A stretch of DNA of 29,377 nucleotides from a virus (IMGVR_UViG_3300047275_000100:1-29377), one strand, 5' to 3'. Shown: positions 3,488 to 21,244, counted from the stretch's first letter. Numbers and translations are program-made. Notes: a model not told the origin generated them from the sequence alone.

Positions 3488-3488
3488 A

Positions 3489-5198: not shown

Positions 5199-8100
5199 TC
5201 AGGGGTGAGATGCTTTGTAAGCGTCAAATTCTGCTTTGAGTTCTTTGATTGCCGCCACTAACAGCGGGATTACATCTGTGTATTGAACACTTAATTCATC
5301 TGGATTGCTTGAATCGACTGCTTCCGGCAAAACAGCTTGAACATCTTGGGCAATCAGGAAACTACGGCGTTTTCCTTCCTCATCAGTTTTATATTTACCG
5401 ATAACTGCGCGAAGTGTGGAAACTTTGTTTGCCGCATCACTGATTGGCTCAATAATGTCTTTTTTACGCTCGTCAGAAATTGTGCCCCAACTTGTCCCTC
5501 CATCTGCAAGCGTCACTCCTGTCGTACTTGCATTAACAATATAAAACTTGTTATCGGAACCTACAATTTGATTCCAATTCAAACCTGCCGTTGCATTGGG
5601 ATTTCGCATTCCAATCATGTCGCCACTGCTTTTTTGCAGTGTTAAAAGATTAGCTCCAATTTGTGTCGTCGTCCCCACCAGCAAATTCCCGCTAGAGTCG
5701 ATGCGGGCGCGTTCGGAGCCGCCTGTTTGAAAAGCAAGAACTCCAGAGCCACCAGTATTGGCGAAAGTGACGGTGTTGCTGCTGAATGTTGCGCGGAAGT
5801 TTGCGTCTACACCATTCTCCGCATTGATAAAGCGGACGTTACCGGGCGTGCCAAGATCAAGTCTTGCGGCTGGGCTCGTCGTCCCTATCCCCAGGTTGCC
5901 GGATGAGTCGATCCTAGCCACCTCCGCGCCGCCCTCTGCAAAAGCAATGGTGTCAGCGGCAGGGAAGAAGATACCTGTGTTGTCATCACCAAACCGAGTC
6001 AGGGCTGGCGCAGCCGCCGAGCCAGCAGCAAACTGGACATTCCCAGCAAAATAGTTCGCCGCCGTCCCGCTGGCGTAGATGTTCCACTTGTTCGTGCCAG
6101 AGGAAACCAGCGAGGTGATGCCGTAGTTGTTTGTGGCAGATGTTAAATCTGCAATGTACAAGCCATATTGATTGGTCGCTGATGACCCAGCGCCAAGACT
6201 TACGTTGTTACTTCTAATTCCATATACTGAGCCAACAGTAAACGATGCGGCTTCTGTACTGTTTGCAACCAAAAGACCGTAAAGTGTAGTTGCTGTTGAA
6301 TTAGCAGTGATGCCGGATTGGATAGCGGTCTGCGTTGTTTGTTGTAAACCGCTACTTCTAATGTAAGCGGCAATACTACTATTCGGGCTTCCCCCAATCG
6401 CCATATACCCATTCACCGTCACAGTGTCGGTGGAGGCATCGCCAAGGGTGGTGTTGCCTGTGATGTTGGCAGAGCCAGATACGGACAGGGCGTTTGTTGG
6501 CGAACTCGTCCCAATCCCCACGTTGCCGGCAGATGTGATACGCATACGATCGGACGAGTTCGTCCGAAACGCCATTGAGTTATCTGTATGGTCGTAAGTC
6601 AGCAGCCCAATATTCGCTGAAACCTCATCGCCAAACCGAATTTGACTTACACCAGCAGAGTTTGCAATCAATTCCAATCTGGCATCACCGCCAGCAAAGG
6701 TGCTTTCAATTTCTACCGAAGTATCTCCGGTTGATGAAGCAACATGAAGCGGAGCAGCAGGCGAACTCGTCCCTATCCCCAAACTCGTCCCATCAAAAGT
6801 CAGCGCACTCCCCGAGGTCAGGACTTTCGAGCCGTTGAGGTACGTCACGCCGTTGGCGGTGCCGCCTGACAGAGTTGGGTTTTGTGCCAGCGTGGTCGCG
6901 CCAGTAACAGACAGCGAAGTGACAGTTCCACCGACAGTGGATGCTGCCTGCCAGGTCGAGCCGTTGTACACACGCAGCTCATTAGCGCTGGTGTTGAAGT
7001 ACTGGTCGCCAGTGGTCAGCGCATTGCCGTCATTGTCAACGCTCGGGTCGCTAGACTTGGCACCTAAATAGATATCATCGAAGGCATCGAAACTGGCGGC
7101 GGCGGCGGCGGCAGATGCGGCGGCAGCGGTGGCACTGCTGGCCGCATTGGTTGCCTGAGTGGTAGCGATGCCGGCCTGGGTGGTCGCTGTGCTTGCAGAA
7201 GATGACGCACTGCTGGCGCTGTTGGCAGCATTGGTGGCGCTAGTTGATGCATTGCTTGCGCTAGTGCTTGCCGACGATGCAGAGTTTGACGCATTGGTAG
7301 CAGAAGTGCTTGCAGAGCTTGCACTATTTGCTGCGTTTGTCGCAGAGGTCGATGCGTTGCTGGCCTGGGTGCTTGCCGTAGATGCGGAGCTTGCAGCAGC
7401 CGATGCCGAGTTGGCAGCATTGGTGGCTGAGGTCGAAGCATTGCTGGCCTGCGTAGAAGCGGTGCTGGCAGATGATGCAGCATTGGTGGCCGAAGTGCTG
7501 GCAGCAGATGCTGAAGATGCAGCATTAGTGGCGCTGGTCGATGCAGCAGATGCGCTTGCTGCAGCAGCAGACGCTGAAGCACCAGCAGCTGCGGCATCAA
7601 CTAGCAAGAACCATTTCGCAGAGTCAGCATTAGTGCCAATAGGTTGAGATCCGCTGGAGGTATGCTGCGTAACGCATTGCCAGATATTGCTTGTGCTGGT
7701 GTCTTTGACAATGTCTCGGACGTAATACAGCGTGCCGCTCGCCCAGTTGCCACGGTTTGAGCCAATGAACTCCGCAGCATCTGGATTTCCGTTAGAGTCA
7801 AAAGAAAGAACTTTTCCAGCTCGTTCAGATGAACGGGGCAGGATCATATTGATGCTTGTTGGATCAGTCTGCGGCGCCTGGAGCGCACGCTGCAAACCCT
7901 CAGCATTCTGCTGCGCGAAGATGGTCTGCTGATCCATCTCGTCATTGACCGTGTTGGCGAAGAAGTCGCCGCCGGTCACAAAGTCGGTGGTGCGCTGGAT
8001 GGTGCGGTTACCAACGATGGCGATCTGCGTGGCCCCGGTTGGCGTGGCCACTAGAGTCACATAGCCAGTGCCGTTGCTATTGATTGTGACCGTGTAATCG

Positions 8101-8240
8101 GTGGTCAGCGTCAGCAGCGTGTCGTCCTTATAAACAGCAACGTCAGTAGCTGCCAGGATCTCAAAGCTGAAGCTATACGGGCCAGTGCCGCTTGCGGCCA
8201 GCACCACCCGGCGCGTGACGTTAGAAATTGGGATGGCCAT
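5199..8240 (-). CDS. Tail fibre protein with T7 gp17-like N-terminal anchor and C-terminal intramolecular chaperone (peptidase S74)
   Basis: N-terminal YSFSFEILAATDVAVY...DYTVT, CBM-like GNWASGTLY, Ala/Ser/Thr heptad stalk, repeated G(N/S)xGIGTxSP modules, then SDERKKDII...FLIAQDVQAVLPEAV...IPLLVAAIKEL. Confidence 0.9.
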   Translation of the reverse strand: MAIPISNVTRRVVLAASGTGPYSFSFEILAATDVAVYKDDTLLTLTTDYTVTINSNGTGYVTLVATPTGATQIAIVGNRTIQRTTDFVTGGDFFANTVNDEMDQQTIFAQQNAEGLQRALQAPQTDPTSINMILPRSSERAGKVLSFDSNGNPDAAEFIGSNRGNWASGTLYYVRDIVKDTSTSNIWQCVTQHTSSGSQPIGTNADSAKWFLLVDAAAAGASASAAAASASAASTSATNAASSASAASTSATNAASSASTASTQASNASTSATNAANSASAAASSASTASTQASNASTSATNAANSASSASTSATNASNSASSASTSASNASTSATNAANSASSASSSASTATTQAGIATTQATNAASSATAAAASAAAAAASFDAFDDIYLGAKSSDPSVDNDGNALTTGDQYFNTSANELRVYNGSTWQAASTVGGTVTSLSVTGATTLAQNPTLSGGTANGVTYLNGSKVLTSGSALTFDGTSLGIGTSSPAAPLHVASSTGDTSVEIESTFAGGDARLELIANSAGVSQIRFGDEVSANIGLLTYDHTDNSMAFRTNSSDRMRITSAGNVGIGTSSPTNALSVSGSANITGNTTLGDASTDTVTVNGYMAIGGSPNSSIAAYIRSSGLQQTTQTAIQSGITANSTATTLYGLLVANSTEAASFTVGSVYGIRSNNVSLGAGSSATNQYGLYIADLTSATNNYGITSLVSSGTNKWNIYASGTAANYFAGNVQFAAGSAAAPALTRFGDDNTGIFFPAADTIAFAEGGAEVARIDSSGNLGIGTTSPAARLDLGTPGNVRFINAENGVDANFRATFSSNTVTFANTGGSGVLAFQTGGSERARIDSSGNLLVGTTTQIGANLLTLQKSSGDMIGMRNPNATAGLNWNQIVGSDNKFYIVNASTTGVTLADGGTSWGTISDERKKDIIEPISDAANKVSTLRAVIGKYKTDEEGKRRSFLIAQDVQAVLPEAVDSSNPDELSVQYTDVIPLLVAAIKELKAEFDAYKASHP
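7095..7595 (-). repeat. Degenerate 21-bp/42-bp coding repeats for Ala/Ser/Thr heptads (ASTSATN, AASSASA, ASTQASN) of the fibre stalk
   Basis: Recurring GCAGCATTGGTGGC and related units on the + strand, with 7-residue periodicity in the translation. Confidence 0.85.
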
Positions 8241-8262: not shown

Positions 8263-8290
8263 ATTGTACTTTCGGGCGCCTATTCGGCAA
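8263..8290 (-). promoter_or_regulatory. Putative sigma70-like promoter for the tail fibre/lysis genes (TTGCCG-N16-TACAAT)
   Basis: Read on the minus strand at the end of the 1031-aa gene and in the following gap, then an AGGAAGGA RBS and ATG at 8240. Confidence 0.45.
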
Positions 8291-11200
8291 CTGCCTCGCG
8301 CTGAATCTGTTGGTATTTCCTCTCAGCCAGCATCCGGTTGCGCTGGATCTGCTGATAGGCGTCTGGGTGCATCTGCTGGAATACGGGCGAATCTATGGCC
8401 ATGTCTCGGAATTCGCCCATGACAGACGACAGCTTATTGGCCACGCCCTCATAGGCGCCATTGGCCATCTGCTGGTTGAAGACAGGGTCGCTCAGAACTG
8501 CGGCCACCGCGCCATAGAAGTTCTTGCCATCAATGGCCAGGTTGTTCATCAGCACCAGCATGTTGCTGTATTCGGTATCGTTGAGCCTGATATTGGCGAC
8601 GGTGCGCTCGGGCTTGTTGAGCGGGAACTTCTGCCTGGCCTTGGCAATGTCCAGCAGCCGCTGCTCCACAGCGTCCAGGTCGCGCTCCTTCTTGTTGAAG
8701 GGGATGATGAAGGACAGGGCGTCAGGCTCTCCGGTCTTGACCTCCTCGCCCCAGAGGTTGCGGCTGGGCGGGATGCTCTCAGACAGCAGCGGGGTCTTGG
8801 CCACCCAGCTGCGGAACAGGAAATCGAAGTAGCGCTTCTCAGGCGGCAGGCTGGCGTCCAGCGTCACCTCGCGCTTGGTCGGATCCAGCACGTTTTCGAT
8901 CTGCCTGATCAGGCCACCGGCAGGCATTGGGATTGGCACCACGCCCGTGGTCATGCTCTGGGCTATGCCGCCAAAGAACTTATTGGCTGCGGCGTTGGCA
9001 GCCTCTCCCTTGGGATCGCGCTTGAGCTGCTCAATCATGTCGGTCAGGTTGGCCATGCCCTGCATGAAGGGCAGCTCGCCAATGTACTTAAATGGAAGCA
9101 GGGCAGAGTAGAGCAGCAGGTCGTGCCACTCGTCGTCGTCTTCCTTGCCGTAGACCGCGCCAATCTCGGCCAGGGTGGCTGCCATGCCCAGCATGCCGCC
9201 GATCGGCTCGAGGCCGGCATAGCTGCGGTAGATGCCCCGGCCATCCTCTGTCTCGCCAACCTTGATGGAGTAGGGCATCCAGCCGGTGGTTTCCTGGAGG
9301 AACTTGCGCCGGTTGGGATCAGTGGGGCCGGCCCCGGTGATCGTGCCATCCAGAGCCAGGTAGTAGCCAAAGCCCATGAATGCAGCGCCTTGGCTCATCT
9401 TGCCCAGCGCCATCTGGCGGCGGGCGCCACCAGCTGCCATGTCTGCGCGGATCTCATCCAGCGCAAAGTTGAGCAGCGGGGTGCGAGCCACCATTTGTTT
9501 CTGGGCGTTGATGACTGTCTTGATAAAGGGCGCCAGCACGGTGCCGACAGGGCCAGCACCCATGGCGTCGAGCTTGTTCCGCATGGACTGCAGCGCCTGG
9601 CCGAAGGCGCCCAGGTCGCTCTGCAGGGTGCCGTCCAGCACACCCTGGTTGACGCGGTCGAGGATCCTGGCGTCGGGCGCCGAGATCTGCATGGCCATGC
9701 CGTCCAGAGCGGTATCCACATCCACGCCATTGCGTATGGCAGTCAACGCATCGCGGGCTGCTAGGCGCCTGGTTTCCATCTGTGCGATCATGGCCTTGCC
9801 CATCTCGTCCACGGCCATCATGGCCCGGAAGGGCAAGCGCACCGCCTTGCCCAGGAAGTCCACGGCATGGGCCATGGGCGTGTTGGGATCTGCAAACAGC
9901 TTGGCCGACAAGGCAGGGTCTGGGGTCTTCTCGACATCCCGGCCCACCTTGTAGATCGGGGCATCATCCACAAAGGACTTGAGGCCGGCGCTCAACCCCT
10001 TGGGCAGCGAATAGAAGAAGTTGGCGATCTCGACAATGGCCTCGGTGGTGGTCACCGAATCGGCGCTATTGCTGCCGAAGATCGGGGTGATCACCTTGTC
10101 GGTGGCCCGGCCCACGGTCGAGGCAAAGGCAGTGTCGAAGCCACGGGCCAGGGATAGCACCATGTTGCCAAACAGCGCCCGCTCGGTGGTGGCCGTCGAG
10201 TACATGAGGCTGGACAGGTACATCTCCTTCCAGATTTTGCCGAGCTGCTGGGTGGTGGTGCCGGCCATCTCGGTGAAACGGGCCTGCTGGTCGAGCGTAA
10301 GTTTCTGGTAAGCCGCTGCCAGGTTCTTCATGTTGGCGCGGCCACCCATCTCGTTGAGCAGCGCGGTGATCTGATTGGGATCTGACAGCCCGCTGGTGCC
10401 GTCCACCGGCAGCCTGAATGAACGCAGGGCACGGGCAGTCTCGGTCTGCGCTGCCTTGAGCCGCATCTGGATGGCAGCATGGGTGGCCAACTGGTTGCGG
10501 AACTGCAGCAGCAGGTTGTCATCCTCGGTGCCGGCAGGCATCGAGCGGATCTTGGTGGACAGCTCGTCCAGCGACTTGGCCGATCGCACCAGCAGGTGCC
10601 GGGCGGCCAGCAGCTTTTCGGCGTTCAGGGTGTCACCGGCCCGCATCTGCAACAGCTCGGGCGCAATGTTGAGCCTGGCGGCCATGTCCTTGAGGGCATC
10701 GTCGCTAACCACCCCGCGCTTGGCAGCGTCGGTCTGCGTGGCAAAAGCCCGGCTGGTGGCGTCAATGATCCGGTCGATGTCCTCGGGCGCCTGGATATAG
10801 TTGAAGTTAAAGTCCACGCCGACCGCGGGCGCATCCACCCCGGTCAGGAATTTGTCGGCGTCCTCCGGGGTCACGGCCCGAATCATCACGCCAGGCACCT
10901 CGGGGCCGACCGGCTCTGGCACGGCGCCGGCAACGCCAACAGGCTGGGGCACAGCTGCCTGATCGACAGCCTGGATCGCTGTGGCCATCTCCTGCTGGGT
11001 AGCAGGCGGCAGGGGCTGTGGTGCGGCTGGTGGCTGGGCAGGCTGGCGGCGGGGTGCTACAGCCTTTCTGACGGCCTGCACGGCGCCTGGTGTAGCTTCC
11101 CTCTCGGCTGCCACGGCAGCGCCTTGTACGGCTTCCTGCGCGGCCTTGGCGCCAGCCTGGTCGGTGACCTGGGGGGTCACCCTGGTGCCCTGCCTGATGA

Positions 11201-11375
11201 TTTTGGCGGGCGTCAGGATCAGCTTGTCTACTAGGCCGGCAACCGGCTCGTACTGCTCGACGGTCTGCTTGGGAAGGATCTCGCCCAGCGGGTCATCTGA
11301 TGGCTGCTCTGGCTGCTCCGGGGTGGCCGGTAGCATGGAGTTGAGGCGATCGTTCAGCGGGGGGATGGCCATCAC
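8280..11375 (-). CDS. Large putative internal virion (ejection) protein, T7 gp16 positional equivalent
   Basis: 1031-aa helical, Ala-rich protein immediately before the tail fibre. Motifs PFIKTVIN, GTITGAGP, GWMPYSIKVG, SYAGLEP and RNLWGE resemble podovirus internal proteins. Confidence 0.7.
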   Translation of the reverse strand: MMAIPPLNDRLNSMLPATPEQPEQPSDDPLGEILPKQTVEQYEPVAGLVDKLILTPAKIIRQGTRVTPQVTDQAGAKAAQEAVQGAAVAAEREATPGAVQAVRKAVAPRRQPAQPPAAPQPLPPATQQEMATAIQAVDQAAVPQPVGVAGAVPEPVGPEVPGVMIRAVTPEDADKFLTGVDAPAVGVDFNFNYIQAPEDIDRIIDATSRAFATQTDAAKRGVVSDDALKDMAARLNIAPELLQMRAGDTLNAEKLLAARHLLVRSAKSLDELSTKIRSMPAGTEDDNLLLQFRNQLATHAAIQMRLKAAQTETARALRSFRLPVDGTSGLSDPNQITALLNEMGGRANMKNLAAAYQKLTLDQQARFTEMAGTTTQQLGKIWKEMYLSSLMYSTATTERALFGNMVLSLARGFDTAFASTVGRATDKVITPIFGSNSADSVTTTEAIVEIANFFYSLPKGLSAGLKSFVDDAPIYKVGRDVEKTPDPALSAKLFADPNTPMAHAVDFLGKAVRLPFRAMMAVDEMGKAMIAQMETRRLAARDALTAIRNGVDVDTALDGMAMQISAPDARILDRVNQGVLDGTLQSDLGAFGQALQSMRNKLDAMGAGPVGTVLAPFIKTVINAQKQMVARTPLLNFALDEIRADMAAGGARRQMALGKMSQGAAFMGFGYYLALDGTITGAGPTDPNRRKFLQETTGWMPYSIKVGETEDGRGIYRSYAGLEPIGGMLGMAATLAEIGAVYGKEDDDEWHDLLLYSALLPFKYIGELPFMQGMANLTDMIEQLKRDPKGEAANAAANKFFGGIAQSMTTGVVPIPMPAGGLIRQIENVLDPTKREVTLDASLPPEKRYFDFLFRSWVAKTPLLSESIPPSRNLWGEEVKTGEPDALSFIIPFNKKERDLDAVEQRLLDIAKARQKFPLNKPERTVANIRLNDTEYSNMLVLMNNLAIDGKNFYGAVAAVLSDPVFNQQMANGAYEGVANKLSSVMGEFRDMAIDSPVFQQMHPDAYQQIQRNRMLAERKYQQIQREAVAE

Positions 11376-13732
11376 TCAGCTCCTTGTTGCAGAGCTGCAC
11401 CGCCCCGCGTTACGCCTGACTGTTTTCCTGCTCGGGTTTGTCTTCCGGTTCGCTTGGATCCATCGGCAGCACCACTTTGGACAGCTCGCGGAACAGCGCC
11501 AGCGGATCCTGGGGCTGGGAGGGGGGTGCCGATTGCGGAGGCAAAGTCGTCGATGAGTTCACGGTTTACTCCTGGCCAGGTGTACCAAGGTTTCCCGAAG
11601 TACTGGTTGGGCTTGCCATCTGGCAGTGTGTCCCTACTGAAGAATTTTACTCCAGGGAAGTCGTCAGGAATCACCCCGTTTTTCTTTTCCATGACATGGT
11701 CAAACATCTCGTCCAGGTCGTTCTTGGTCATGGCCACTTTGTCGCCATTGGCTGTCTCGTAGACAAACCTATTGCCGCCCTCTGGCATGCGCTCGTAGGT
11801 AACGCCGAAGCCCCGCTCATGCGTGCGGCCTTCCCTGACCGGCACGTTGGCGAATGGCATGGCCGCGCCCTCGGCCTTCCTGACGATTGTCTCGAGGGTG
11901 GGGTGGGCCACCTCTTGGCCAGACGACAGCACCCAGCTCTCCCAGTGGTAGCGCCCAATGCTGGCCTTGTCGGGTCTGCCGACCGACTTGTACAGCTCCT
12001 GGATGCGGGTGGCCAGAGAACGCTCGAGCGCCTCGTAAGTGGCCAAACCTGGGCCACCGTCAAACAGGTGCGCCACATCGTCGTAGATCTTGTCGCCGCC
12101 AGCAAACAGGCGATTGATCTGGATACGGTCAAGCACCATCACATCCTCGCGGCCAGACACCAGCAGGGCAAAGGACAGCACCTTGTTCTTGATGCCAACG
12201 CCCTCGGCCAGGCCATAGAACTCGCGCCTGATCTGCGGGCCGGTCATCTCTGGGTTGGCAAACATGTCATGCAGCGCCTGCAGCTTGGTGCGGCCATCTG
12301 GCAGCTTCTCGCTCATCTTGGGCAGGAAGACGCTCAAGAAATCGTTTGCGTTGCTAGTAACCATCTTTCCGGGGCTGCCGGCAGGGATGGTCTGGCTGAT
12401 CATCTGCAGGCCAGCGTCAACATCAGCTTGGGTGTACTCGCCACGCACAGCCTTCTGGATGAGCGGCTGCATGGCCTCGGCCATGTCAAGGAAGCCAGAC
12501 TCATGCGGGTAAGCAGACGCCCGGCGCGAGAGCATGGCCCAGAACATCAGGGTGCCGGTGGTGTCTGCGTTGGCTGTGCCGTTGCGGTAGATGTTGCGGA
12601 ACTTGTCCACCACCGCAAAGCCGCGATCAGCCTCGTCAATTTGGGCCTTGCTCATGGAGCCAAACCAGCTCGACCACTTGCCCATGTCATTGGCGTTGTT
12701 GATCAGCCAGCTCGGCGGGATCGGCACCTCATTTGAGTTGTAGACATTGGCCATCATGGTGGCGAATGTTTCGTCTGATTTCAGCGGATCAGGGAAGGCA
12801 ACAGCCAAGTCATCAAGCCTGGTCGAAACATCCTGATAGTTGCCTGGATTGACCGCATTGGTGATGTTCTGGCCTTTGCCGTCAGGCGTGTATGAGCCTG
12901 TAACCGATACACGATATTGCGGCTCCAGCTCCAGGCGCTTTTCTTGGGTCACATTGCGGTTGATTCTGGCTGCACCAGTGTTGACCTTGGCAGCCGATTC
13001 AGTGGTCACCTGGCCATAGCGCTCGAGCGGCACAGCGGGGATCAGCAGCCCCTGGCGCTGCAGCATTTGGCCGGCCATCTCGCCAGCCTTGGGGGCCAGC
13101 GCCTTGGCGCCAGCTACAGCCGCCTTAACTGTCTTAACCTGGCCACCAGGTGCGACAACCTCGCCCATGCTTTCGTAGGGCACATTGCCGCCACCTACTG
13201 TTCCGACATTCTGGTCAAGCCACTTCTTGACCTCATCTGTCTTGGGCAACACGGTGCCGCTCTGTACTCCACGCAGGAAAGCATCCAGCTTGCCCTCCCC
13301 AGCACCACGGCTGAATATTTCCTTGATGCCGTATACCAGCGACTCCAAATCACCAGGCAAGCCAATGAACCCTTGCACAAGTCCCTTGCCAGTTGCAGCC
13401 AGCATGTCGGCCATGCCTTGCGCCGGCTCAGTAATGTCGCGCATGCTGGGCGGTCTGAGCGGAACACCGCCGCGTCCAACGCGCACACCAGGCCCGGCAT
13501 CTGTTGCCGTATCAGACGGGCCAGCAGCCAGCATCATGGGTCGGCCTAGCGGCATCATCTCGCCATATGGCGTGCGGTAGTAGACGGCCTGGCCATCGTC
13601 TATGTCCTCAGTGAACACCTCATCATCGTCACCATCAGACGCACGCTCGAGCAGCCCTTGCCGCACACCAGGCGTGGTGATGAACTCATCGGCCATGTAG
13701 ATGTCATCAATGGTGGGCTGCTTTGTTCTCAT
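11372..13732 (-). CDS. Putative internal virion protein carrying an HhH-GPD (Ogg2/EndoIII-like) DNA glycosylase domain
   Basis: 786 aa within the ejection-protein block. Motifs LMFWAMLSRRASA, IRREFYGLAEGVGIKNKVLSFALLVSGREDVMVLDRIQINRLF, and YEALE...YHWESW. Confidence 0.68.
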   Translation of the reverse strand: MRTKQPTIDDIYMADEFITTPGVRQGLLERASDGDDDEVFTEDIDDGQAVYYRTPYGEMMPLGRPMMLAAGPSDTATDAGPGVRVGRGGVPLRPPSMRDITEPAQGMADMLAATGKGLVQGFIGLPGDLESLVYGIKEIFSRGAGEGKLDAFLRGVQSGTVLPKTDEVKKWLDQNVGTVGGGNVPYESMGEVVAPGGQVKTVKAAVAGAKALAPKAGEMAGQMLQRQGLLIPAVPLERYGQVTTESAAKVNTGAARINRNVTQEKRLELEPQYRVSVTGSYTPDGKGQNITNAVNPGNYQDVSTRLDDLAVAFPDPLKSDETFATMMANVYNSNEVPIPPSWLINNANDMGKWSSWFGSMSKAQIDEADRGFAVVDKFRNIYRNGTANADTTGTLMFWAMLSRRASAYPHESGFLDMAEAMQPLIQKAVRGEYTQADVDAGLQMISQTIPAGSPGKMVTSNANDFLSVFLPKMSEKLPDGRTKLQALHDMFANPEMTGPQIRREFYGLAEGVGIKNKVLSFALLVSGREDVMVLDRIQINRLFAGGDKIYDDVAHLFDGGPGLATYEALERSLATRIQELYKSVGRPDKASIGRYHWESWVLSSGQEVAHPTLETIVRKAEGAAMPFANVPVREGRTHERGFGVTYERMPEGGNRFVYETANGDKVAMTKNDLDEMFDHVMEKKNGVIPDDFPGVKFFSRDTLPDGKPNQYFGKPWYTWPGVNRELIDDFASAIGTPLPAPGSAGAVPRAVQSGAADGSKRTGRQTRAGKQSGVTRGGAALQQGAE

Positions 13733-13734
13733 TA

Positions 13735-15498
13735 CTACTCTCCAGCCGGTTTGACGATTTTGGACTTGTTGTTTCTGTAGTCATTGATTGCGGCGCGGGC
13801 CGAGTTGATTACCGTTGGGCTGACCTTGCGCTTGACCGCAGTTGCAATAGCCGCCTCTACCGCAGCATCATTCGACAGATCGACGTCACGCAGCTCTGGC
13901 ACAGACAGCACAGCCTGCGCCTGGTTTGACTCAGCGGCCTTGGTGAATGCCTTGGACATGCCTGCGCCTGCCCGCTTGGCAAGCGCCTCGCCATACATGC
14001 GGATGTCAGATGCAGACGGCAGGTCACCACGCGCATTGAGCGGTGTACGTGAATAGGTGTACAGCTCGGTCACCAGCGTATTGCGGGTGGCCGTGGCCAT
14101 CTGCCGTGCATCCGCATCCTTCAGCTCAGGTGGCAGGTTCTCGGCCTGGATGCCAACTGCCATGCCGATCATCCTGACGCCATAGCTGATGTCGTCATTC
14201 GGGTTGGAGAGCTGCTGAAGCAGCTGCCTCTTGGTGGTGCGAGTCAGCGGTGCATTGATGATGTCGCTGGCCTGAGCAGTGCCTAGTGCAACACGCTGGG
14301 AGAGGCGAGCAAAGGCAGCCAGGTCGTCATTGGCCGGGCCGGTGGCACTGTCCGACTGCATGAAATCCCTGGCCTTCTTGATGGTTTCAGACGACACAGG
14401 CAGGCTTGTGAGCTGATCCCACAGTTGCCTTTGGAGGCGGGCATCGTTGGTTGCGTACATGCGGGCCAGGATGTTCTCGCCTTGTTGGTTTGAATCTACA
14501 AACCCCAGCTCGATGGCGTTCTTCCTGGCCGTGGCCGCCTTCATAAAGTCTTCCTCGACCCGCATCAGCGAGGCAAAGTCGTTCTTTAGTAGGTACTCGA
14601 CATGAGGCCGCAGCTTACCTGCCTCACCGATCTCGCCCTTCCGCAGCTTGGCAATGGCCTCCCTGGGGTTGCGTAGGTTGTCCTCAGTCAGCAGCGCCTT
14701 GGTCAGCGCATTGACTCTGGCATCGGTGAGCGCCTTCAGCACCTTGGCGCTGTACTGGCTCTGGATCTCTGGGTTGTTGGATGCAATAGCCTCTCGACCA
14801 ATGTTGACTCTGAAAACGTCGGCATATGCGGCAAAGTTTTCAGGATCGGTCGAGGCTGCGTTTTCCAGCAGCATCACCTCGTTGTCAAAATTGAAGTCGA
14901 ACTTGATGCGCCGCTGATTTAGCGCACGCTTCAGCTCTGAGTCGAGGGCCGATTTCAGCACAGTGCTGCCATGCGTTGACATGGTGGCCCTGAACTTGTA
15001 GCTGGCCTCCGGGTCAATCTGCGACAGCGACTTGCCCATGCCGTCGATCATGGTGTTGATCTTGGCCTGTACCTGCTCTGAGGTGGCCTGGCCCAGCTCG
15101 ACCTGGTTGAGGATCTTGACCAGTTCGCTGCGGCCTTCTGCCTCAAACTGGCTAGACAGCTCCAGGCTGCGGGCCTTGCGTACGGCCTGCTGGAAGACGC
15201 TTACTGGATTGCTGCCCAGATCGAGCTTGGACAGGTCGCCGTTTTTAGCGGCCTCGATCTGCTCCACCGTCAGCGGGTTCTGTGCAGCAAACTGCAGACC
15301 CTCACGCTGCCTGGACACCATCGCCTCTTGGAACAGGTTGGCGCTCATGCGATCCAGCGCCTCGGCCAGCTGGCCAGCACCCTGGGCCTCGACACGCGCT
15401 GCGATGGGCTGCACCTCTTGAATGCCCACGCGCTGCATAGGCATATTGCCAGGGCCAGCAATATTCACTCGGCCAGATTCGATGCGTCCTGTGGCCAT
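13735..15498 (-). CDS. Putative internal virion protein (T7 gp15 positional equivalent)
   Basis: 587-aa helical protein after the gp14-like gene. The N-terminal GQLAEALDRMS segment fits this class. Confidence 0.65.
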   Translation of the reverse strand: MATGRIESGRVNIAGPGNMPMQRVGIQEVQPIAARVEAQGAGQLAEALDRMSANLFQEAMVSRQREGLQFAAQNPLTVEQIEAAKNGDLSKLDLGSNPVSVFQQAVRKARSLELSSQFEAEGRSELVKILNQVELGQATSEQVQAKINTMIDGMGKSLSQIDPEASYKFRATMSTHGSTVLKSALDSELKRALNQRRIKFDFNFDNEVMLLENAASTDPENFAAYADVFRVNIGREAIASNNPEIQSQYSAKVLKALTDARVNALTKALLTEDNLRNPREAIAKLRKGEIGEAGKLRPHVEYLLKNDFASLMRVEEDFMKAATARKNAIELGFVDSNQQGENILARMYATNDARLQRQLWDQLTSLPVSSETIKKARDFMQSDSATGPANDDLAAFARLSQRVALGTAQASDIINAPLTRTTKRQLLQQLSNPNDDISYGVRMIGMAVGIQAENLPPELKDADARQMATATRNTLVTELYTYSRTPLNARGDLPSASDIRMYGEALAKRAGAGMSKAFTKAAESNQAQAVLSVPELRDVDLSNDAAVEAAIATAVKRKVSPTVINSARAAINDYRNNKSKIVKPAGE

Positions 15499-16166
15499 TA
15501 TGGTTGCCCCCTATCCATGCGAGCAAAGTCGCCCGTCGTCTTGGCTGGCGCTGGTGTTGTCGCCCCTGAGAATGGGTCTGCTTTAATAAAGTTGGTTACA
15601 CCACGCGCCAGTGTGTAGTTGGCCAGCATGCCTCCGGTGCTACGGGCAGCGGTAGCCGCGCCCTCGTACTGGCCAGCCTGGCGCTTGGCTTGGAACAGGT
15701 TGAGCGTGTTCTGCAGCTCAGTCGATTGCAGCAGCGCAGACGCATCCTCAAAGCCCAATACTCGGGCCGTCATAGCATTGAGATCAGCAATATCCACATC
15801 GCGCATGGTGGCCGCTACGTTTTCAAGCTGTACGTCCTGAATCGAACCAGTGCCAAGTGCCACGCCGCCAGCAGCAGCCCTGGCCCGCAGCGCAGCGTTG
15901 GTCTGCCTCATGTTCCGCAGCAGGGTGTTGCCGGCAATCTGCCAGTTGCGGGCCTCAGTCTCGGCCTTCTGCAGTATCCGACCGGCCTGCACCTCGGAAT
16001 AGGTCTGGTCGAGATCTGCACGCACCTGGGCGATGGCCAGGGTATCTCTGGCCTGCACCAGATATGAGGTCTGCTGCTGGATTGCTTGCGCCCTCTGAAA
16101 ACCAGCGGAGGCATAGCTTTCCAGCAGGCCACCAAACGCTTGAGCTTGTCCAAGTGTGATTGCCAT
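15498..16166 (-). CDS. Putative internal virion protein (T7 gp14-like)
   Basis: 222-aa Ala/Gln-rich protein with RARAAAGGVALGTGS motif, directly after the nozzle gene. Confidence 0.7.
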   Translation of the reverse strand: MAITLGQAQAFGGLLESYASAGFQRAQAIQQQTSYLVQARDTLAIAQVRADLDQTYSEVQAGRILQKAETEARNWQIAGNTLLRNMRQTNAALRARAAAGGVALGTGSIQDVQLENVAATMRDVDIADLNAMTARVLGFEDASALLQSTELQNTLNLFQAKRQAGQYEGAATAARSTGGMLANYTLARGVTNFIKADPFSGATTPAPAKTTGDFARMDRGQP

Positions 16167-16168
16167 GA

Positions 16169-18385
16169 TCAGTTCCCCGCATTGACCGCAACGCGGTAGT
16201 CAAGTCCCAGCAGCGTCATTTTGAGCGGCAGGGTCTGTGCCACTTCGATCGCCTGCTCACGGCTGTAGCCCAGCACGCCATTGACCCGTTTGATGCCTGT
16301 GAAGGTCGGCTCTGGGTCATCCAGTAGCGGGTTATCAAACAGGCGAAAGGCCACCGGCTGGTTGTTGATGGTCATGTGCTGTGTGTCCTTCAGCACGGCA
16401 TTGATCTCCACAATTCGCTTCTTGAATGCCACGCGGTTGCCGGTCTGCATTCTGATATCTACCGGCATGGTCTTGACATAGACGGTGATCGGCAGGCCTA
16501 CCTCATAGCTTGTGGTGCTGGCCCGGTCAAATGTGACAGAACCACCGCCGCTGACAGTTTCATTGCTCTGTGGCACACCATCGCATATGACATTCAGGCT
16601 CTTGCCAATGTGCGGCAGGCTGCTTGCGCTGGCTGCAGCCCCACCAGTAAAAGCGCAGTCGGTGTAGAGCGAGTCGCTGAACAGCTCGACAAAGTAGCGG
16701 TTGGTGCTGTTGAACGTGCGCTTCGTGACGCAGTAGATCTGGCTCACATCCACGCCGATATCAATGAAGCTGCCATCGGTTGTGAACTCGCTGGGGCTGG
16801 TGATATTCTGCGATCGCATCAGCGAGAAGACGGCCATGCTGCCGTCTGCCTCGTTGGTCATCATCAGCAGATCAGACTCATCTGTGCTGGCGGCCCGGCG
16901 CATAGCGATGCGCTGCGGGGTCTTGAGCAGGTGGCCAGACAGCAGAGAGATCCGCTGCGTGACATAGGTCGCCTGCGTGTCGGTAAACACAAACTCGTTG
17001 AGGCTCTTGCCCTGGCGCTGGATGTAGACCGAGCCTGACTCCACAGATTGCACGCGGGTGCCAGGCTTGATGCCGTTGCGGCTTACATTCTTAAAGGTGA
17101 ATGTCAGTGGGGTGATCGGGTCGCTGTTGCTTTGCGGCACGAAGAACTCGCCGCCAGTGGTAAACACTTGGAAGTCCCTCGAGCTGATGATGTCGGTGAT
17201 GACGTTCAGCTCATTGGTGTCGAGCGTCGCCTCGACCGCATCGTCGTCCAGGGACTCGCTAGGCACGAAGTCGAAGAACAGGCCGATCTTGCTGCCCCAG
17301 ATGGTAGATGGCCGTGACTTGGAGCCGCCAAAGTACAGGCGCCCTTCATGGAAAGTAACAGACCTTGGCCATCCCTTGGTGCTGCTCCAGACATCTTCGT
17401 AGCCATGCTCCAGCTCCCAGCTGCCCTCGGCAATGACTGAAGTGCTGAAGAACGGGTACTCGGTGACAGCGTTGACCACGGTCGCGCTGACGTACTGCAC
17501 GATCCTGGCGCGGCCTTGTGGCTGTGCATTGACGTACTGGTTGACCGAGTCGGTCGTCCAGCTGGTCAGGCTGTATGTGCTGGTGTTGTCAGGTGTGGTC
17601 GTCCATGCACGGTCAACGGTAGCCACCTTGGTAGAGCCGACGTAATCTTCGACGATGCGGATCTGGCCAGCGCCTGTGCCGCCAGTGATAGTGACATACA
17701 GACCGTTGTAGTAATCATTGGTCGAGCTTGCCGTTGACTTGAGCGTGATGGTCGTGCTGGTGCCGGCCTGTGCGGTGCCGGTGTCGTGCTTGGCGCTGGA
17801 CGCAGTAAGAGTGATATTTCCAGACACTGCCGACGGTGTCAGCGTGGCGGCCAGCTGGGTATGAAAGTCAATGTTGAATGCGTACTTTGGGATGCTGTCA
17901 AATGTGATGGTGGTGGCCGTCCAGCTTGAGTCAGATGCGCCGCGCACAATTTGCACCGGCTGCAGATCAGGATGCACCACGATCAAGGTGTCGGCAGACT
18001 GAGTCCAGCACATATCGTCCACCATGTCGCTGGTAATGCTGGTCGTCAGGTAGTTGTTGGCGCCGCCATTGATGGCCGTGACCACAGCACCGTTTTTGAT
18101 GACATACATGCGCTGGTGCGTGAAGCACAGCATGTAGCTGTCGGTCACCGAGAACTGGAATGGCACCAAACGCACGCCATTGGCCGCGCTTGCGGTGCTG
18201 GTGTTGGGCAGCTCCAGGATGTGCTTGAGGCCAGGCCGGCGGCGCAATCCACCCTGGGGCTGGATCAGGACGTTGGTGGCCTTGGCCAGGGCATTGTTGT
18301 ACTGCTCCAGCTCAACCCTAGCCCGCAGCAGCGGATCCAGCTCGCCGGTCGAGAAGTTGCTTTGGATGTCAACAAAGCGCGGCAT
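16169..18385 (-). CDS. Tail tubular protein B / nozzle (T7 gp12, P22 gp10-like)
   Basis: QSNFSTGELDP, NVLIQPQGGLRRRPG, RLVPFQFS, TQSADTLIVVHPD, GWPRSVTFHEGRLYFGG and VGLP motifs. Confidence 0.9.
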   Translation of the reverse strand: MPRFVDIQSNFSTGELDPLLRARVELEQYNNALAKATNVLIQPQGGLRRRPGLKHILELPNTSTASAANGVRLVPFQFSVTDSYMLCFTHQRMYVIKNGAVVTAINGGANNYLTTSITSDMVDDMCWTQSADTLIVVHPDLQPVQIVRGASDSSWTATTITFDSIPKYAFNIDFHTQLAATLTPSAVSGNITLTASSAKHDTGTAQAGTSTTITLKSTASSTNDYYNGLYVTITGGTGAGQIRIVEDYVGSTKVATVDRAWTTTPDNTSTYSLTSWTTDSVNQYVNAQPQGRARIVQYVSATVVNAVTEYPFFSTSVIAEGSWELEHGYEDVWSSTKGWPRSVTFHEGRLYFGGSKSRPSTIWGSKIGLFFDFVPSESLDDDAVEATLDTNELNVITDIISSRDFQVFTTGGEFFVPQSNSDPITPLTFTFKNVSRNGIKPGTRVQSVESGSVYIQRQGKSLNEFVFTDTQATYVTQRISLLSGHLLKTPQRIAMRRAASTDESDLLMMTNEADGSMAVFSLMRSQNITSPSEFTTDGSFIDIGVDVSQIYCVTKRTFNSTNRYFVELFSDSLYTDCAFTGGAAASASSLPHIGKSLNVICDGVPQSNETVSGGGSVTFDRASTTSYEVGLPITVYVKTMPVDIRMQTGNRVAFKKRIVEINAVLKDTQHMTINNQPVAFRLFDNPLLDDPEPTFTGIKRVNGVLGYSREQAIEVAQTLPLKMTLLGLDYRVAVNAGN

Positions 18386-18999
18386 CAGTACCTCGCCGTT
18401 ATAAGCGTATAGTCGTCGATCACTTTGATGGAGTTGTTGGCCCCATCAATCTGCGTGGCTTGCCTGAAGTAGCCGCCGCGCCCATTTTCTCCAGCCTCGC
18501 CCAGTGCCATGCGCCGCCAGAAGGCAGCCTTCTCGGCCTGCTCGGTAATCGGCTCTGCAATGTGCCAGGCCACCTGGTACTTGAGCAGCTGTACAAAGTA
18601 CTGCGGCATGGCGTACTCAGGGGTGCTGTACTGGTAGTCGATGTAGACTGCATCCAGGTTGGTCAGCACCTGGTCGCCCTGGATCTCCCACTCCTTGCGC
18701 GGGGTGGCGCCAACGGCTGCTGTGTCGTACACAGCGCGGGGACTGCCAAGGCGATCACCCGGCAGCTGGTATGCGTATTTCCAGACGCTGCCAGGCGCAG
18801 TGATCAGCCTGGCCAGCGCAATCTTCTTCATGCTGAAACTCCACGGGTACATCATCAGCGTGGAGTCTCGAATGTCGGGGTAGAGTCGATCGCAAACGCT
18901 GGACTCATCGGTGCCATCGTTGAAGGACGAAATTGCCTTCGCACCCAGCATCAGCAGGGCATCAGAGCAGATGGTGATCCCGGTGTCGCCTGCAGCCAT
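18385..18999 (-). CDS. Tail tubular protein A / adaptor (T7 gp11-like)
   Basis: ICSDALLMLGAKAISSF, YPWSFS and YAYQLPGD motifs, positioned between capsid and nozzle genes. Confidence 0.88.
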   Translation of the reverse strand: MAAGDTGITICSDALLMLGAKAISSFNDGTDESSVCDRLYPDIRDSTLMMYPWSFSMKKIALARLITAPGSVWKYAYQLPGDRLGSPRAVYDTAAVGATPRKEWEIQGDQVLTNLDAVYIDYQYSTPEYAMPQYFVQLLKYQVAWHIAEPITEQAEKAAFWRRMALGEAGENGRGGYFRQATQIDGANNSIKVIDDYTLITARY

Positions 19000-20476: not shown

Positions 20477-21244
20477 CTATTTGGCAAACTGGTCATACAT
20501 GCGCTCGACCTTTTGCCGGTATGCAGCGTCTGTCTTGTAGCGAGGATCGGCCACCATGGCATACAGCTCCTCTTTGGATGGTGCGCCTTCCAGTGGCGCC
20601 GACTCGATCGGCACCCGGCCCTCGTAGGCAGTGCGGATCTTGACCAGAGCCTGCAGCCCGCGGGCGGTGCCGCCCATGATCTTGAACTCCTCAAAGTCGT
20701 CTTTGCTCCAGACGCCCTTGTTGACCAGGCCGCGTGCCCAATCGACCATGCCGTTGACCACGGCATTGGCGTTGGGGCCGAGCTTGGCCATTTCGGCTGC
20801 TGGATCGACCATGTCGCCCTCGAGCATCTCTTTGGCGTTGGTCTGCAGTCGGTCTACCAGGTCGTCAAACTGGGCCTGGGACAGCCCGTTTTCCTTGGCC
20901 CAGCCAACCATGGTGCTGGCCATGGGGTTATCGCCGGCGCCGTCGCCAAACTTGCTGGTGTCGTACTTGCCATCAGCCGGGGCATTGTGGGCGCCCTTGC
21001 TGATCTTGCCGCGCAGGTCGCGCCAGGACTTGGCCAAGGATTCATAGTCAGCCTTGCCGTCCTTGACGAAATTCTCAGGCAGCCATTCTGGCGGCGCTTC
21101 TGGGGCAGCTGGCGATGCTGCAGCTGCAGCCCTGTGGGGGATTTCAGCCTTCTGCGGCTCTGCTGGTTTGCTGGGGTCTTCGATGGTGACAGAGTCCAAT
21201 AGGCCGGTGGACTCGCCGCCGGGTTGGTCGTTGGTGTCGCTCAT
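20477..21244 (-). CDS. Capsid scaffolding/assembly protein (T7 gp9-like)
   Basis: Acidic, Pro-rich N-terminus, PEWLPENF, and C-terminal DPRYKTDAAYRQKV. Lies between portal and MCP. Confidence 0.85.
   Translation of the reverse strand: MSDTNDQPGGESTGLLDSVTIEDPSKPAEPQKAEIPHRAAAAASPAAPEAPPEWLPENFVKDGKADYESLAKSWRDLRGKISKGAHNAPADGKYDTSKFGDGAGDNPMASTMVGWAKENGLSQAQFDDLVDRLQTNAKEMLEGDMVDPAAEMAKLGPNANAVVNGMVDWARGLVNKGVWSKDDFEEFKIMGGTARGLQALVKIRTAYEGRVPIESAPLEGAPSKEELYAMVADPRYKTDAAYRQKVERMYDQFAK

Follow-up and report, generated by a model that had tools for sequence, protein, structure and literature searches.

An accessory gene in the internal-virion block of a small T7-like phage codes for a protein with a predicted Ogg2-like HhH-GPD glycosylase fold

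The viral DNA analysed here (IMGVR_UViG_3300047275_000100:1-29377, 29,377 nt in full length, hereafter the window) carries, as an accessory fourth gene in the internal-virion block of a small T7-like phage, a 786 aa ORF whose product, P0001, has a conserved core for which an Ogg2-type HhH-GPD glycosylase fold is predicted, the Lys-Asp dyad of this core being invariant. Since the predicted fold is closest to Ogg2 and the catalytic Lys and Asp are invariant, P0001 is likely a DNA glycosylase/AP-lyase. The reading we favour as a whole, with a probability of about 0.55, is that of a bifunctional glycosylase/AP-lyase of the ejection block, packaged in the virion and delivered with the phage DNA.

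Gene, neighbours and genomic slot

The ORF (nt 11372–13732, minus strand) gave the stop-free translation of 786 aa expected from the original prediction, and all the peptides quoted there were retrieved in place in P0001: LMFWAMLSRRASA at residues 395–407, IRREFYGL...INRLF at 501–543, YEALE at 566–570 and YHWESW at 595–600. The codons assigned to K517 and D535, with a spacing of 18 residues, were likewise confirmed. The gene is tightly packed in its operon: only 2 nt separate the end of the upstream gene from the ATG at 13732, and the overlap claimed with the downstream gene in the gp16 position does occur, the TGA stop (11374–11372) overlapping the start of that gene (GTG 11375 / ATG 11372). 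The block and its boundaries are as follows.

16169..18385, minus strand: tail tubular protein B, upstream block boundary (phrog_376, E 3e-122)
15498..16166, minus strand: p222, first gene of the internal block, in the gp14 position (by position and synteny)
13735..15498, minus strand: p587, upstream neighbour, long-helix protein in the gp15 position (AF2 model all-helical, pLDDT 78)
11372..13732, minus strand: whole gene for P0001, 786 aa, accessory protein of the internal-virion block with an Ogg2-like module (translation; position in 59/67 loci)
8280..11375, minus strand: p1031, downstream neighbour, internal virion protein in the gp16 position (phrog_6651 'internal virion protein', E 1e-22)
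5199..8240, minus strand: tail fiber, downstream block boundary (phrog_38058 and others; Peptidase_S74)

The position between tail tubular protein B and tail fiber, found in the window, is kept in 59 of 67 related viral loci, with the order tubA, tubB, (p222), p587, target gene, p1031, fiber. The 'gp16-like' label originally given to p1031 rests on its match with phrog_6651. The same protein matches gp24 and gp23 of MEP301, the closest cultured phage, gp23 being annotated as 'internal virion protein', and p587 is homologous to MEP301 gp26. The p587 model scored Z 5.8–7.5 against ejectosome proteins, not above generic helical proteins, and p222 had no Pfam or PHROG family match. The three genes p222, p587 and p1031 form a core common to the window phage and MEP301, which does not have the target gene and holds in its slot an unrelated ORF of 161 aa. 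No cultured phage was found with the gene, four tblastn queries having no match in 50,697 records; the related contigs derive from environmental metagenomes.

The slot is the one occupied in T7-type phages by gp14, gp15 and gp16, although no similarity to these core proteins was detectable in P0001 by PHROG and Pfam searches, and ejectosome proteins were absent among the structural matches of the model of residues 265–740. T7 gp16 offers a precedent, being an ejected core protein that bears an enzymatic domain, a lytic transglycosylase; the substrate there is peptidoglycan, whereas the predicted substrate of the target is DNA. Gene position, together with the polyvalent relatives described below, suggests that P0001 is packaged in the virion.

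A glycosylase/lyase that is genuine but unpackaged, acting late in the cytoplasm in repair or in the degradation of host DNA and only incidentally encoded in a structural operon, appears highly improbable to us. A phage-encoded bifunctional glycosylase/lyase is already exemplified by T4 endonuclease V (pyrimidine-dimer glycosylase/AP lyase), which has a different fold; the genes of this enzyme and of the other phage repair glycosylases lie with those for DNA metabolism, and their products are not known as virion cargo. Repair glycosylase genes are noted in passages on phage genomes (e.g., PMC5336643, PMC7824862), and the HhH-GPD gene of Sf3 (gp35, PMC5336643) is among those lying with DNA-metabolism genes. 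The accessory nature of the target gene, its variable slot and the existence of stand-alone viral proteins of ≈200 aa with the same fold are consistent with such a possibility. Against it stand the conserved position and the translational coupling with p1031, an apparently non-enzymatic N-terminal extension of ≈260 residues, which would be typical of cargo, and the repeated occurrence of the module in polyvalent proteins adjoining DNA-ejection genes.

Predicted fold and conservation of the Lys-Asp dyad

P0001 could be divided into the following segments.

12941..13732, minus strand: residues 1–264, variable Gly/Ala-rich N-terminal region (low conservation and many gaps in alignment A1)
11513..12940, minus strand: residues 265–740, conserved core, forming a single compact unit in the prediction (AF2 model; tblastn matches)
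11903..12709, minus strand: residues 342–610, HhH-GPD (Ogg2-like) glycosylase-fold domain (structural alignment, model residues 78–346)
12125..12241, minus strand: residues 498–536, helix-hairpin-helix, Gly-containing loop and Asp, the HhH-GPD signature (DSSP, hhalign)
12182..12184, minus strand: codon of K517, which corresponds to MjOgg K129 and is predicted to be the Schiff-base nucleophile (conservation, alignment)
12128..12130, minus strand: codon of D535, which corresponds to MjOgg D147 and is predicted to be the catalytic Asp (conservation, alignment)
11513..11902, minus strand: residues 611–740, conserved C-terminal alpha/beta subdomain, prolonging the chain beyond the Ogg2 end (AF2 model, alignment A1)
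11375..11512, minus strand: residues 741–786, basic low-complexity tail, in the closest relatives only (alignment A1)

The AlphaFold2 model of residues 265–740 (pLDDT 90.6, pTM 0.88) comprises an N-terminal subdomain, the Ogg2-like domain and the C-terminal alpha/beta subdomain; tblastn matches in the related loci, giant proteins included, cover approximately positions 1–476 of the core query. In Foldseek searches against the PDB the top seven matches were all Ogg2 enzymes (probability 0.99–1.00, TM by target 0.62–0.72), with E-values of only 0.014–0.14. Alignment with VIA-align returned Z 15.5 for Tm1821 (3n0u; rmsd 2.8 Å, 204/209 residues), Z 15.4 for the MjOgg-DNA complex (3knt; 205/207 residues), Z 14.8 for 3fhf and Z 14.2 for SsOgg (3fhg). 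A scan of 48,161 chains that did not depend on Foldseek again ranked Ogg2 first, followed at ranks 2–22 exclusively by members of the HhH-GPD superfamily (Z 9.8–5.7); the first unrelated row had Z 5.7 and rank 50 had Z 4.2. The model therefore has the two-lobed, all-alpha fold of this superfamily, in which the active site lies where the lobes meet, and the nearest relatives are those originally suggested.

The resemblance to Ogg2 (MjOgg 3FHF/3KNT, Tm1821 3N0U, SsOgg 3FHG) amounts to a near-whole-enzyme superposition of the predicted fold over 199–210 residues. EndoIII/Nth, MutY, OGG1, AlkA, MagIII, Mag1, AGOG and ROS1 share the superfamily fold but are more distant, none of these other enzymes exceeding Z 9.8 (trapped EndoIII, 1orn, Z 7.7). 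The preference for Ogg2 over Nth/MutY and the lack of an Fe-S cluster, both stated in the original prediction, were also upheld. The [4Fe-4S] loop of Nth and MutY is lacking in the phage protein, which has no Cys at all, and in Ogg2 as well; the A-domain of OGG1 appears to be lacking too, judging from the aligned ranges (3f0z 91–285, 8vx4 110–325). Some differences from Ogg2 were evident. Ogg2 is a compact stand-alone enzyme of ≈200–220 residues, encoded by a cellular repair gene, whereas the phage domain takes up residues 342–610 of 786 and belongs to a gene of a virion structural operon or to giant polyvalent proteins; moreover, the phage core is larger by one subdomain on the N-terminal side and by a conserved one of 130 residues on the C-terminal side. 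This last (residues 611–740) contains three strands (model residues 381–384, 390–395 and 401–404), helices and many residues invariant in A1; no fold match was identified for it, in structural searches that barely covered that part.

According to DSSP, the signature segment consists of helices at model residues 234–242 and 252–261 (498–506 and 516–525 in P0001), joined by a hairpin with G-x-G, then the loop 262–271 (S-G-R-x-D-V-x-V-L) and the helix 272–280, which is capped by D535. The segment 498–536 was placed by hhalign on the Ogg2 motif G-x-G-x-KEASHFLRN-x-G...D-R-H, with K517 on the Lys of KEASH and D535 on the Asp of I-(I/L)-D-R-H. Thus HhH, Gly loop and a Lys and an Asp 18 residues apart are in register in the two families, a register given by an hhalign match with P = 0.021, and the positions R502, G513, S520, L523, G527, R536, Y566, E570 and W597 are also shared. 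The corresponding MjOgg numbers, 129 and 147, were fixed by the 3knt and 3fhf alignments, 3knt being a K129Q entry with Gln at 129. Nth and OGG1, which are both bifunctional, share this Lys-Asp dyad.

At the primary sequence level the relation is much less apparent, with ≈13% identity between Ogg2 and the phage core. A first hhalign run of the phage family against Ogg2 found no homologous alignment; with 81 phage sequences, and an Ogg2 alignment validated by its matches to MjOgg (7.7e-78), Tm1821 (3.3e-64) and SsOgg (6.1e-54), the sole match was that on the HhH-GPD motif (probability 2.3%). No match to P0001 was found in Pfam (E ≤ 0.01), PHROGs and NCBIfam, nor by sequence and profile searches of the PDB; PF00730 and PF22175 had none in 22 members of A1 (E ≤ 1) and none, even sub-threshold, in 25 further representatives (E ≤ 10), and the PF00730 profile had none in the whole record. 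The nearest ESM Atlas cluster, a weak indication, was a viral 'putative HhH-GPD' group with PF22175 (Ogg-HhH) in 27% of its members. Sequence-level homology to Ogg2 may be regarded as marginal and, because no Pfam match reached the gathering threshold, family membership is claimed here at the fold and superfamily level only.

Both putative catalytic residues are invariant in three sets of homologous sequences (22/22, 43/43 and 309/309), the largest of which reaches down to ≈40% identity, so that the conservation on which the original prediction depended is indeed observed. R502, G513, S520, G527, D530, R536 and E567 are likewise present in 309/309, whereas the adjoining K515 varies (K 133, D 106, A 28 and others), which indicates a pattern beyond chance.

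These data bear on whether the module could be catalytically inert, with the HhH-GPD scaffold gripping the leading genome end within the ejectosome in a structural role. In favour of this, HhH motifs attach to the backbone of DNA irrespective of its sequence, T7 core proteins are known to contact DNA, and the gene is located among those of ejection proteins. We consider this quite unlikely, as the absolute conservation of the Lys, the Asp and about ten other polar residues in all 309 sequences is typical of an active site and the whole two-lobed glycosylase fold is retained, beyond the HhH alone. Furthermore, the MEP301 ejection block is built without the target gene, which is thus not a required structural part, and in other lineages the module travels with enzymatic effector domains. 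On the other hand, a shared fold is no proof of function, given that the superfamily includes non-glycosylases, such as the DUF2419 queuine-salvage enzymes (Z 8.8 and 8.3 with our model) and the 5-PmdU glycinyltransferase PaMx11 gp46 (Z 4.7).

The C-terminal lysine sensor and the possible substrate

Excision of 8-oxoG by Ogg2 relies, according to passages of PMC3397491, on a strictly conserved C-terminal lysine, the free carboxylate of which discriminates 8-oxoG from G; C-terminally truncated Ogg2 is described there as losing 8-oxoG excision and retaining AP-lyase activity. The lysine was terminal in 45/45 Ogg2 sequences. A median of 185 residues follows the W600 equivalent in the phage family, only 2 of 256 proteins ending within 12 residues of it, and the positions aligned to the lysine are occupied, in our reading of the alignments, by Gln or Ala/Ser. 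As judged from the sequences, the C-terminal-lysine sensor of Ogg2 is absent from the phage family.

A true 8-oxoguanine glycosylase, that is a functional Ogg2 orthologue clearing upon DNA entry the oxidative lesions suffered by the free virion in sunlit, oxic water, would account for the by far closest structural match, the conserved dyad and the environmental origin of the related contigs. It is nonetheless unlikely, the chain going on past the sensor position in 254/256 proteins and the sensor lysine being replaced. The 8-oxoG option of the original prediction is therefore weakened, and specificity for this base is doubtful because the free lysine sensor is absent. By analogy with truncated Ogg2, AP-lyase chemistry is plausible. 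The substrate is probably not recognised as in Ogg2, since the lysine carboxylate is absent and a conserved subdomain of 130 residues is found instead, which could act as a substitute sensor.

Under the favoured reading of a packaged glycosylase/AP-lyase, the DNA backbone would be bound through the HhH hairpin, and the nucleotide acted upon would flip into the pocket separating the two helical lobes; K517, activated by D535, would attack C1' and form a Schiff base, leading to base release and/or to a cut 3' of the abasic site by beta-elimination. Abasic sites or another damaged or modified base, on incoming phage or host DNA at the start of infection, could be the substrate, and the variable N-terminal ≈260 residues might direct the protein to the capsid core.

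Relatives in giant polyvalent proteins

In seven loci the module lies inside ORFs of 1,266–3,109 aa, three of which contain LPD38 (3/8 locus ORFs, E 1.5e-21 to 3.6e-36). Two ORFs upstream of the giant one, L059 and L060 have a gene for a 'DNA ejection protein' (phrog_4287); the L063 protein joins the module with a SAM methyltransferase domain (Methyltransf_23, 32.1 bits, cut-off 27), and in L059 a weak, sub-threshold methyltransferase match directly precedes it. These proteins resemble the polyvalent proteins of Iyer et al. 2017 (PMC5512222), with homologous modules in multi-domain proteins of 1,100–3,745 aa adjoining DNA-ejection genes. Polyvalent proteins are described in passages of PMC5512222 and PMC7824862 as injected with DNA, and the concept of enzymes delivered with the DNA in the earliest phase of infection (PMC5512222) would be shared; they carry many modules, whereas P0001 shows a single recognisable one. 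In the main text of PMC5512222 the terms glycosylase, Ogg and EndoIII-type domain have no occurrences, also among the nucleic-acid-acting domains, although the module could be one of the 40 LPDs left unnamed in that study.

Polyvalent proteins often carry nucleotide-targeting domains, as reported in passages of PMC7824862. This, as well as the methyltransferase matches and the similarity to DUF2419 and PaMx11 gp46, would fit an HhH-GPD scaffold with another chemistry, either base or nucleotide modification or exchange (thymidine-hypermodification transferase-like) or hydrolysis of free or signalling nucleotides (DUF2419-like), in line with the polyvalent theme of DNA protection or nucleotide-signal destruction. 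We hold it very unlikely, considering that the scores of both non-glycosylases are far under the 15.5 of Ogg2, that a Lys and an Asp at these Ogg2 positions are a hallmark of glycosylase/lyases and that no hypermodification pathway genes were seen within the window.

A glycosylase as phage-injected cargo was not found described in the literature searched. Extending the packaged glycosylase/AP-lyase reading to the whole family, we tentatively propose, as a possibility that we rate somewhat below even, a so far unrecognised class of injected DNA-targeting effectors, in which an Ogg2-derived glycosylase/lyase module would have dispensed with the 8-oxoG sensor and acquired another subdomain for recognition. 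Widespread in uncultured phages (356 representative clusters) as solo internal-virion cargo or as a polyvalent module, it might act on DNA during the very first seconds after infection begins, by clearing from the entering genome the lesions or abasic sites placed there by host defences or by the environment, or else by damaging DNA of the host that bears a host-specific base.

The module relatives range from 348 to 3,745 aa in length, with the module internal, and 101 of the best 150 of the 356 representative clusters are of at least 1,100 aa. Polyvalent hallmarks (ART-PolyVal, LPD22/23/37/38, InPase, RadC) were detected above the Pfam cut-offs in 10 of 18 giant proteins sampled, and a protein of 773 aa, P0188, combines ART-PolyVal with the module.

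The 786-aa gene and its genomic setting

Translation gave 786 open codons for the minus-strand ORF 11372-13732, encoding the protein here termed P0001. The original prediction had described this ORF, quoted peptides from it and placed the putative catalytic Lys (K517, codon 12182-12184) and Asp (D535, codon 12128-12130) 18 residues apart, and all of this was found as stated. P0001 contains 0 cysteines, in agreement with the proposed lack of an Fe-S cysteine cluster. The TAG stop of the upstream gene lies 2 nt ahead of the P0001 ATG, and the stop of P0001 (TGA) shares bases with the start (GTGATG) of the gene that follows. These genes are thus tightly coupled.

The record is linear, 29,377 bases in length, with an estimated completeness of 88% and a G+C content of 59%. 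Pfam and PHROGs searches identified a T7-like head-tail module on the minus strand of the window, composed as follows:

Large terminase, minus strand
Portal, minus strand (PF12236, E 2e-90)
Scaffold, minus strand
Capsid, minus strand (PF19821, E 3.6e-76)
Tail tubular A and tail tubular B, minus strand (phrog_394 and phrog_376)
Four internal-block genes of 222, 587, 786 and 1,031 aa, minus strand, between the tail tubular genes and the tail fiber
8280-11375, minus strand, the 1,031-aa member of this block, p1031 (phrog_6651 'internal virion protein', E 1e-22)
Tail fiber, minus strand, after the 1,031-aa gene

The remaining part of the window carries a lambdoid-style set (RecE-like exonuclease, RecT, SSB, O-like replication initiator and lysozyme), and no RNA polymerase, DNA polymerase or recognisable base-modification gene was seen in the window. 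The 587-aa protein of the internal block, p587, had been proposed to be gp15-like; its model aligned with ejectosome proteins (T7, PhiM1, cyanophage A4) at Z 5.8-7.5, no better than generic helical proteins.

The portal gene is flanked by two small minus-strand genes (21241-21507 and 23117-23440) that code for a DUF6321 protein and for a Bbp19-like phage protein (PF25181); the Bbp19-like gene points to kinship with BPP-1-type podoviruses. The gene directly downstream of that for the large terminase (25011-25391, minus strand) encodes a 126-aa protein with a cupin domain (PF07883, E 2e-8). PHROGs labelled 'short tail fiber protein' or 'tail fiber adhesin' match it as well (E 8e-24), its fold and terminase-side location being odd for a fiber protein.

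Predicted fold, catalytic residues and 8-oxoG sensor

An AlphaFold2 model of P0001 residues 265-740, obtained with a 43-sequence alignment as input, reached a mean pLDDT of 90.6 and a pTM of 0.88. When the PDB was searched with this core model, Foldseek returned nothing at E <= 0.001; the first seven places were taken by 8-oxoguanine glycosylases of the Ogg2 family, with E-values of 0.014-0.14, probabilities of 0.99-1.00 and TM-scores by target of 0.62-0.72, and EndoIII, MagIII, AGOG and MUTYH came next. VIA-align gave Z 15.5 with Tm1821 (rmsd 2.8 Å, 204/209 residues), 15.4 with MjOgg-DNA (205/207 residues) and 14.8 and 14.2 with two further Ogg2 structures, the next families reaching at most 8.5. 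When 48,161 representative chains were scanned without recourse to Foldseek, Ogg2 again ranked first and ranks 2-22 were all occupied by the HhH-GPD superfamily (Z 9.8-5.7); the first unrelated chain scored Z 5.7 and rank 50 Z 4.2, indicating that generic inflation of helical models was not operating. The part of the model that aligned, 78-346, equals P0001 residues 342-610, so the extent of the domain had been guessed correctly, and the proposed HhH-GPD/Ogg2-like nature is supported at the level of both fold and catalytic residues. The nearest ESM Atlas cluster, a viral 'putative HhH-GPD' group with PF22175 Ogg-HhH in 27% of its members, gives weak independent backing to the HhH-GPD assignment.

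The DUF2419 queuine-salvage enzymes 7ugk_A and 7u07_A scored Z 8.8 and 8.3 against the core model, level with classical glycosylases, a reminder that an HhH-GPD-type scaffold also serves nucleotide hydrolysis. We consider it quite improbable that P0001 carries a different chemistry on the same scaffold; its Lys-Asp pair aligns with that of Ogg2 (see below). In BFVD, stand-alone viral proteins of ~196-215 aa, all unannotated, have the fold of the core model, with probabilities of 0.99 for UPI001E74C6D0 and M1NWK4, 0.72 for G8EYE9 (Synechococcus phage S-CBP42) and 0.66 for a Salinibacter phage protein; these small proteins may be Ogg2-type enzymes of cultured phages.

P0001 had no match in Pfam, PHROGs or NCBIfam, and neither phmmer nor the family profile found a relative among PDB sequences, the best hit (E 0.31) being an unrelated Mycoplasma protein. 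A word-indexed search with residues 340-620 retrieved 253 relatives at E <= 0.001, the named ones all 'hypothetical', and an exhaustive search of 1.84 billion representatives located the module in 356 clusters (50% identity), 319 of these at E <= 1e-10; a search for shorter stand-alone forms gave mostly contig-end fragments. In the family alignment A1 the conserved core spans approximately residues 270-735 of P0001, the first ~260 residues being variable. K517 and D535, predicted to be conserved, were indeed present in 309/309 domain segments cut from the homologues collected, as were T392, W398, S402, E411, R502, G513, S520, G527, D530, R536 and E567, with K515, beside K517, variable. An inert structural module that only grips DNA comes second among the alternatives and appears unlikely; both presumed catalytic residues are invariant.

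For comparison with Ogg2 itself, genes were gathered from reference genomes by a back-translated motif and 45 of 57 full-length ORFs were aligned; this way of selecting them makes the motif residues invariant among the aligned sequences. The resulting profile was confirmed as Ogg2 by its hits to MjOgg (7.7e-78), Tm1821 (3.3e-64) and SsOgg (6.1e-54), and it assigned K129 of MjOgg, replaced by Gln in 3knt (K129Q), to the Lys of KEASHFLRN and D147 to the Asp of IIDRH. With the flank-laden, full-length family alignment A2, hhalign found no homologous alignment to Ogg2 (probability 0.3). Domain-only sequences produced a single match, on the HhH-GPD motif, at P = 0.17 with 36 sequences and again at P = 0.021 (probability 2.3%) with 81 non-redundant ones, and global mode gave no match between the phage family and Ogg2. 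Both domain-only alignments placed K517 on the Ogg2 Lys and D535 on the Ogg2 Asp, with R502, G513, S520, L523, G527 and R536 also matching, and a relaxed alignment added Y566/E570 (Ogg2 YxxxE) and W597 (Ogg2 Trp). The sequence evidence is thus marginal but in the correct register, and the Ogg2-like case is carried by predicted fold and conservation.

According to a review of OGG subfamilies (PMC3397491), the 8-oxoG sensor of Ogg2 is the carboxyl group of a strictly conserved C-terminal lysine, and C-terminally truncated Ogg2 keeps AP-lyase activity with loss of 8-oxoG activity. A C-terminal lysine ends 45/45 of the Ogg2 sequences aligned. In the phage family the chain extends a median of 185 residues past the W600 equivalent, only 2/256 proteins stopping within 12 residues of it, and where Ogg2 ends P0001 has a conserved alpha/beta subdomain (residues 611-740). 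Since the terminal-lysine sensor is missing and the chain continues, the phage family is not Ogg2 in the strict sense, and 8-oxoG is unlikely to be recognised in the canonical way unless the subdomain replaces the sensor. A true 8-oxoG repair enzyme, to which the fold and the catalytic residues would also be suited, is the foremost of the alternatives and still an unlikely one. Having lost the sensor and gained a conserved subdomain, the family is a natural experiment in HhH-GPD substrate change.

Accessory status and proposed delivery with the genome

Among cultured phages, Methylophilales phage MEP301 is the nearest (57% identity in tail tubular B); its host is an OM43-type strain of the Methylophilales. 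Its gp26 resembles p587 (E 1.5e-15), gp24 and gp23 resemble p1031 (E 3.9e-6 and 1.5e-30) and gp27 weakly resembles the 222-aa p222, whereas the position of P0001 holds only an unrelated 161-aa ORF. The three-protein core is thus shared, and the Ogg2-like protein appears to be an added cargo. By tblastn with P0001, the polyvalent-protein version and two further representatives, the module was absent from 50,697 GenBank phage records, of which 201 were matched by tail tubular B used as control; the cargo is so far known from uncultured phages only. Being common, yet unseen by Pfam, PHROGs and NCBIfam and absent from these GenBank phage records, the module represents a whole domain family now labelled 'hypothetical'.

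Among 67 related viral loci, 59 keep the order tubA, tubB (tail tubular A and B), (p222), p587, P0001 homologue, p1031, fiber; seven have the module within ORFs of 1,266-3,109 aa, and in one (L026) the neighbours are unrecognisable. We favour, with a probability of about 0.55, an accessory internal-virion protein with an Ogg2-derived HhH-GPD core and an intact Lys-Asp dyad. Such a protein would likely be a glycosylase/AP-lyase that enters the cell along with the genome, probably reading its substrate unlike Ogg2; activity, substrate and packaging are all what we infer for P0001. That the enzyme is real but stays unpackaged is the least probable of the alternatives; the gene sits inside the internal block in most loci.

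Packaged nucleic-acid-acting phage enzymes are few and include the N4 virion RNA polymerase, P1 DarB and the T4 proteins Alt and IP, all of which have shown something of how infection begins. If a DNA glycosylase/lyase is indeed delivered, it would add base-excision chemistry to this repertoire and would suggest that phages forestall host defences based on damage or on base modification or, alternatively, repair their genome ahead of any phage gene expression. In the literature searched, no DNA glycosylase was described as a phage internal virion or ejection protein, none of the HhH-GPD papers on phages concerned virion proteins, and those on polyvalent proteins of bacteriophages held nothing relevant on glycosylases.

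p1031 (8280-11375, minus strand) corresponds to two adjacent, slightly overlapping MEP301 genes (15664-18763), gp24 matching residues 286-461 and gp23 residues 507-942, and is a split or fused ejection protein. In the variable N-terminal region of P0001 (~residues 120-135, within 12941-13732, minus strand) a motif G-L-P-G-D-(L/V)-x-x-(L/I) recurs in A1, being present in P0001 and in P0014, P0075 and P0118, where it may act as a signal for processing or for targeting to the core.

The module in polyvalent proteins

Three points add to the original prediction: the Ogg2 sensor is lost, the gene is accessory, and the module is widespread in polyvalent proteins (giant multidomain phage proteins). 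Among the best 150 representative clusters, 101 were at least 1,100 aa and 19 at least 3,000 aa long. Polyvalent hallmarks above Pfam cut-offs (ART-PolyVal, LPD22, LPD23, LPD37, LPD38, InPase, RadC) were found in 10 of 18 giants scanned; one more had a sub-threshold ART and seven had no match. LPD38 was also detected in the giant ORFs of loci L059, L060 and L061 (E 1.5e-21 to 3.6e-36), with a sub-threshold ART-PolyVal match in L059, and phrog_4287 'DNA ejection protein' lies two ORFs upstream of the giant ORF in L059 and L060.

According to Iyer et al. 2017 (PMC5512222), polyvalent proteins are injected with the DNA in the earliest infection phase, and their nucleic-acid-acting domains comprise the methylase-helicase dyad, ParB-like DNases, RadC, SMS/RadA, primases/RNAPs, PBECR and 2H. 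'Glycosylase', 'Ogg' and 'endonuclease III' are absent from the main text of that article; the module could be an unnamed LPD of its supplementary domain tables.

The cluster representative P0188 (773 aa) joins an N-terminal ART-PolyVal ADP-ribosyltransferase domain (E 8.9e-11) to the Ogg2-like module and, in the same size class as P0001, is a minimal two-domain polyvalent protein. The giant ORFs L059:4462-13500, L060:4048-13377 and L061:5617-13545 code for 2,642-3,109 aa, and their C-terminal ~950 residues match PHROGs of unknown function with profiles of 2,100-3,900 positions (phrog_14770, 616, 10691, 18222 and 9854). Next after the L059 giant ORF comes a gene for an SbcD-like 'DNA repair exonuclease' (phrog_704). 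At L063:8005-11154 (plus strand), a 1,049-aa homologue in the tubB...p1031 slot has its Ogg2-like core followed C-terminally by a class-I SAM methyltransferase domain (Methyltransf_23 at residues 904-1007, scoring 32.1 bits where the cut-off is 27). In L059 a methyltransferase match that is weak and below threshold precedes the module directly. This hints that glycosylase-like and methyltransferase domains are paired to act on DNA.
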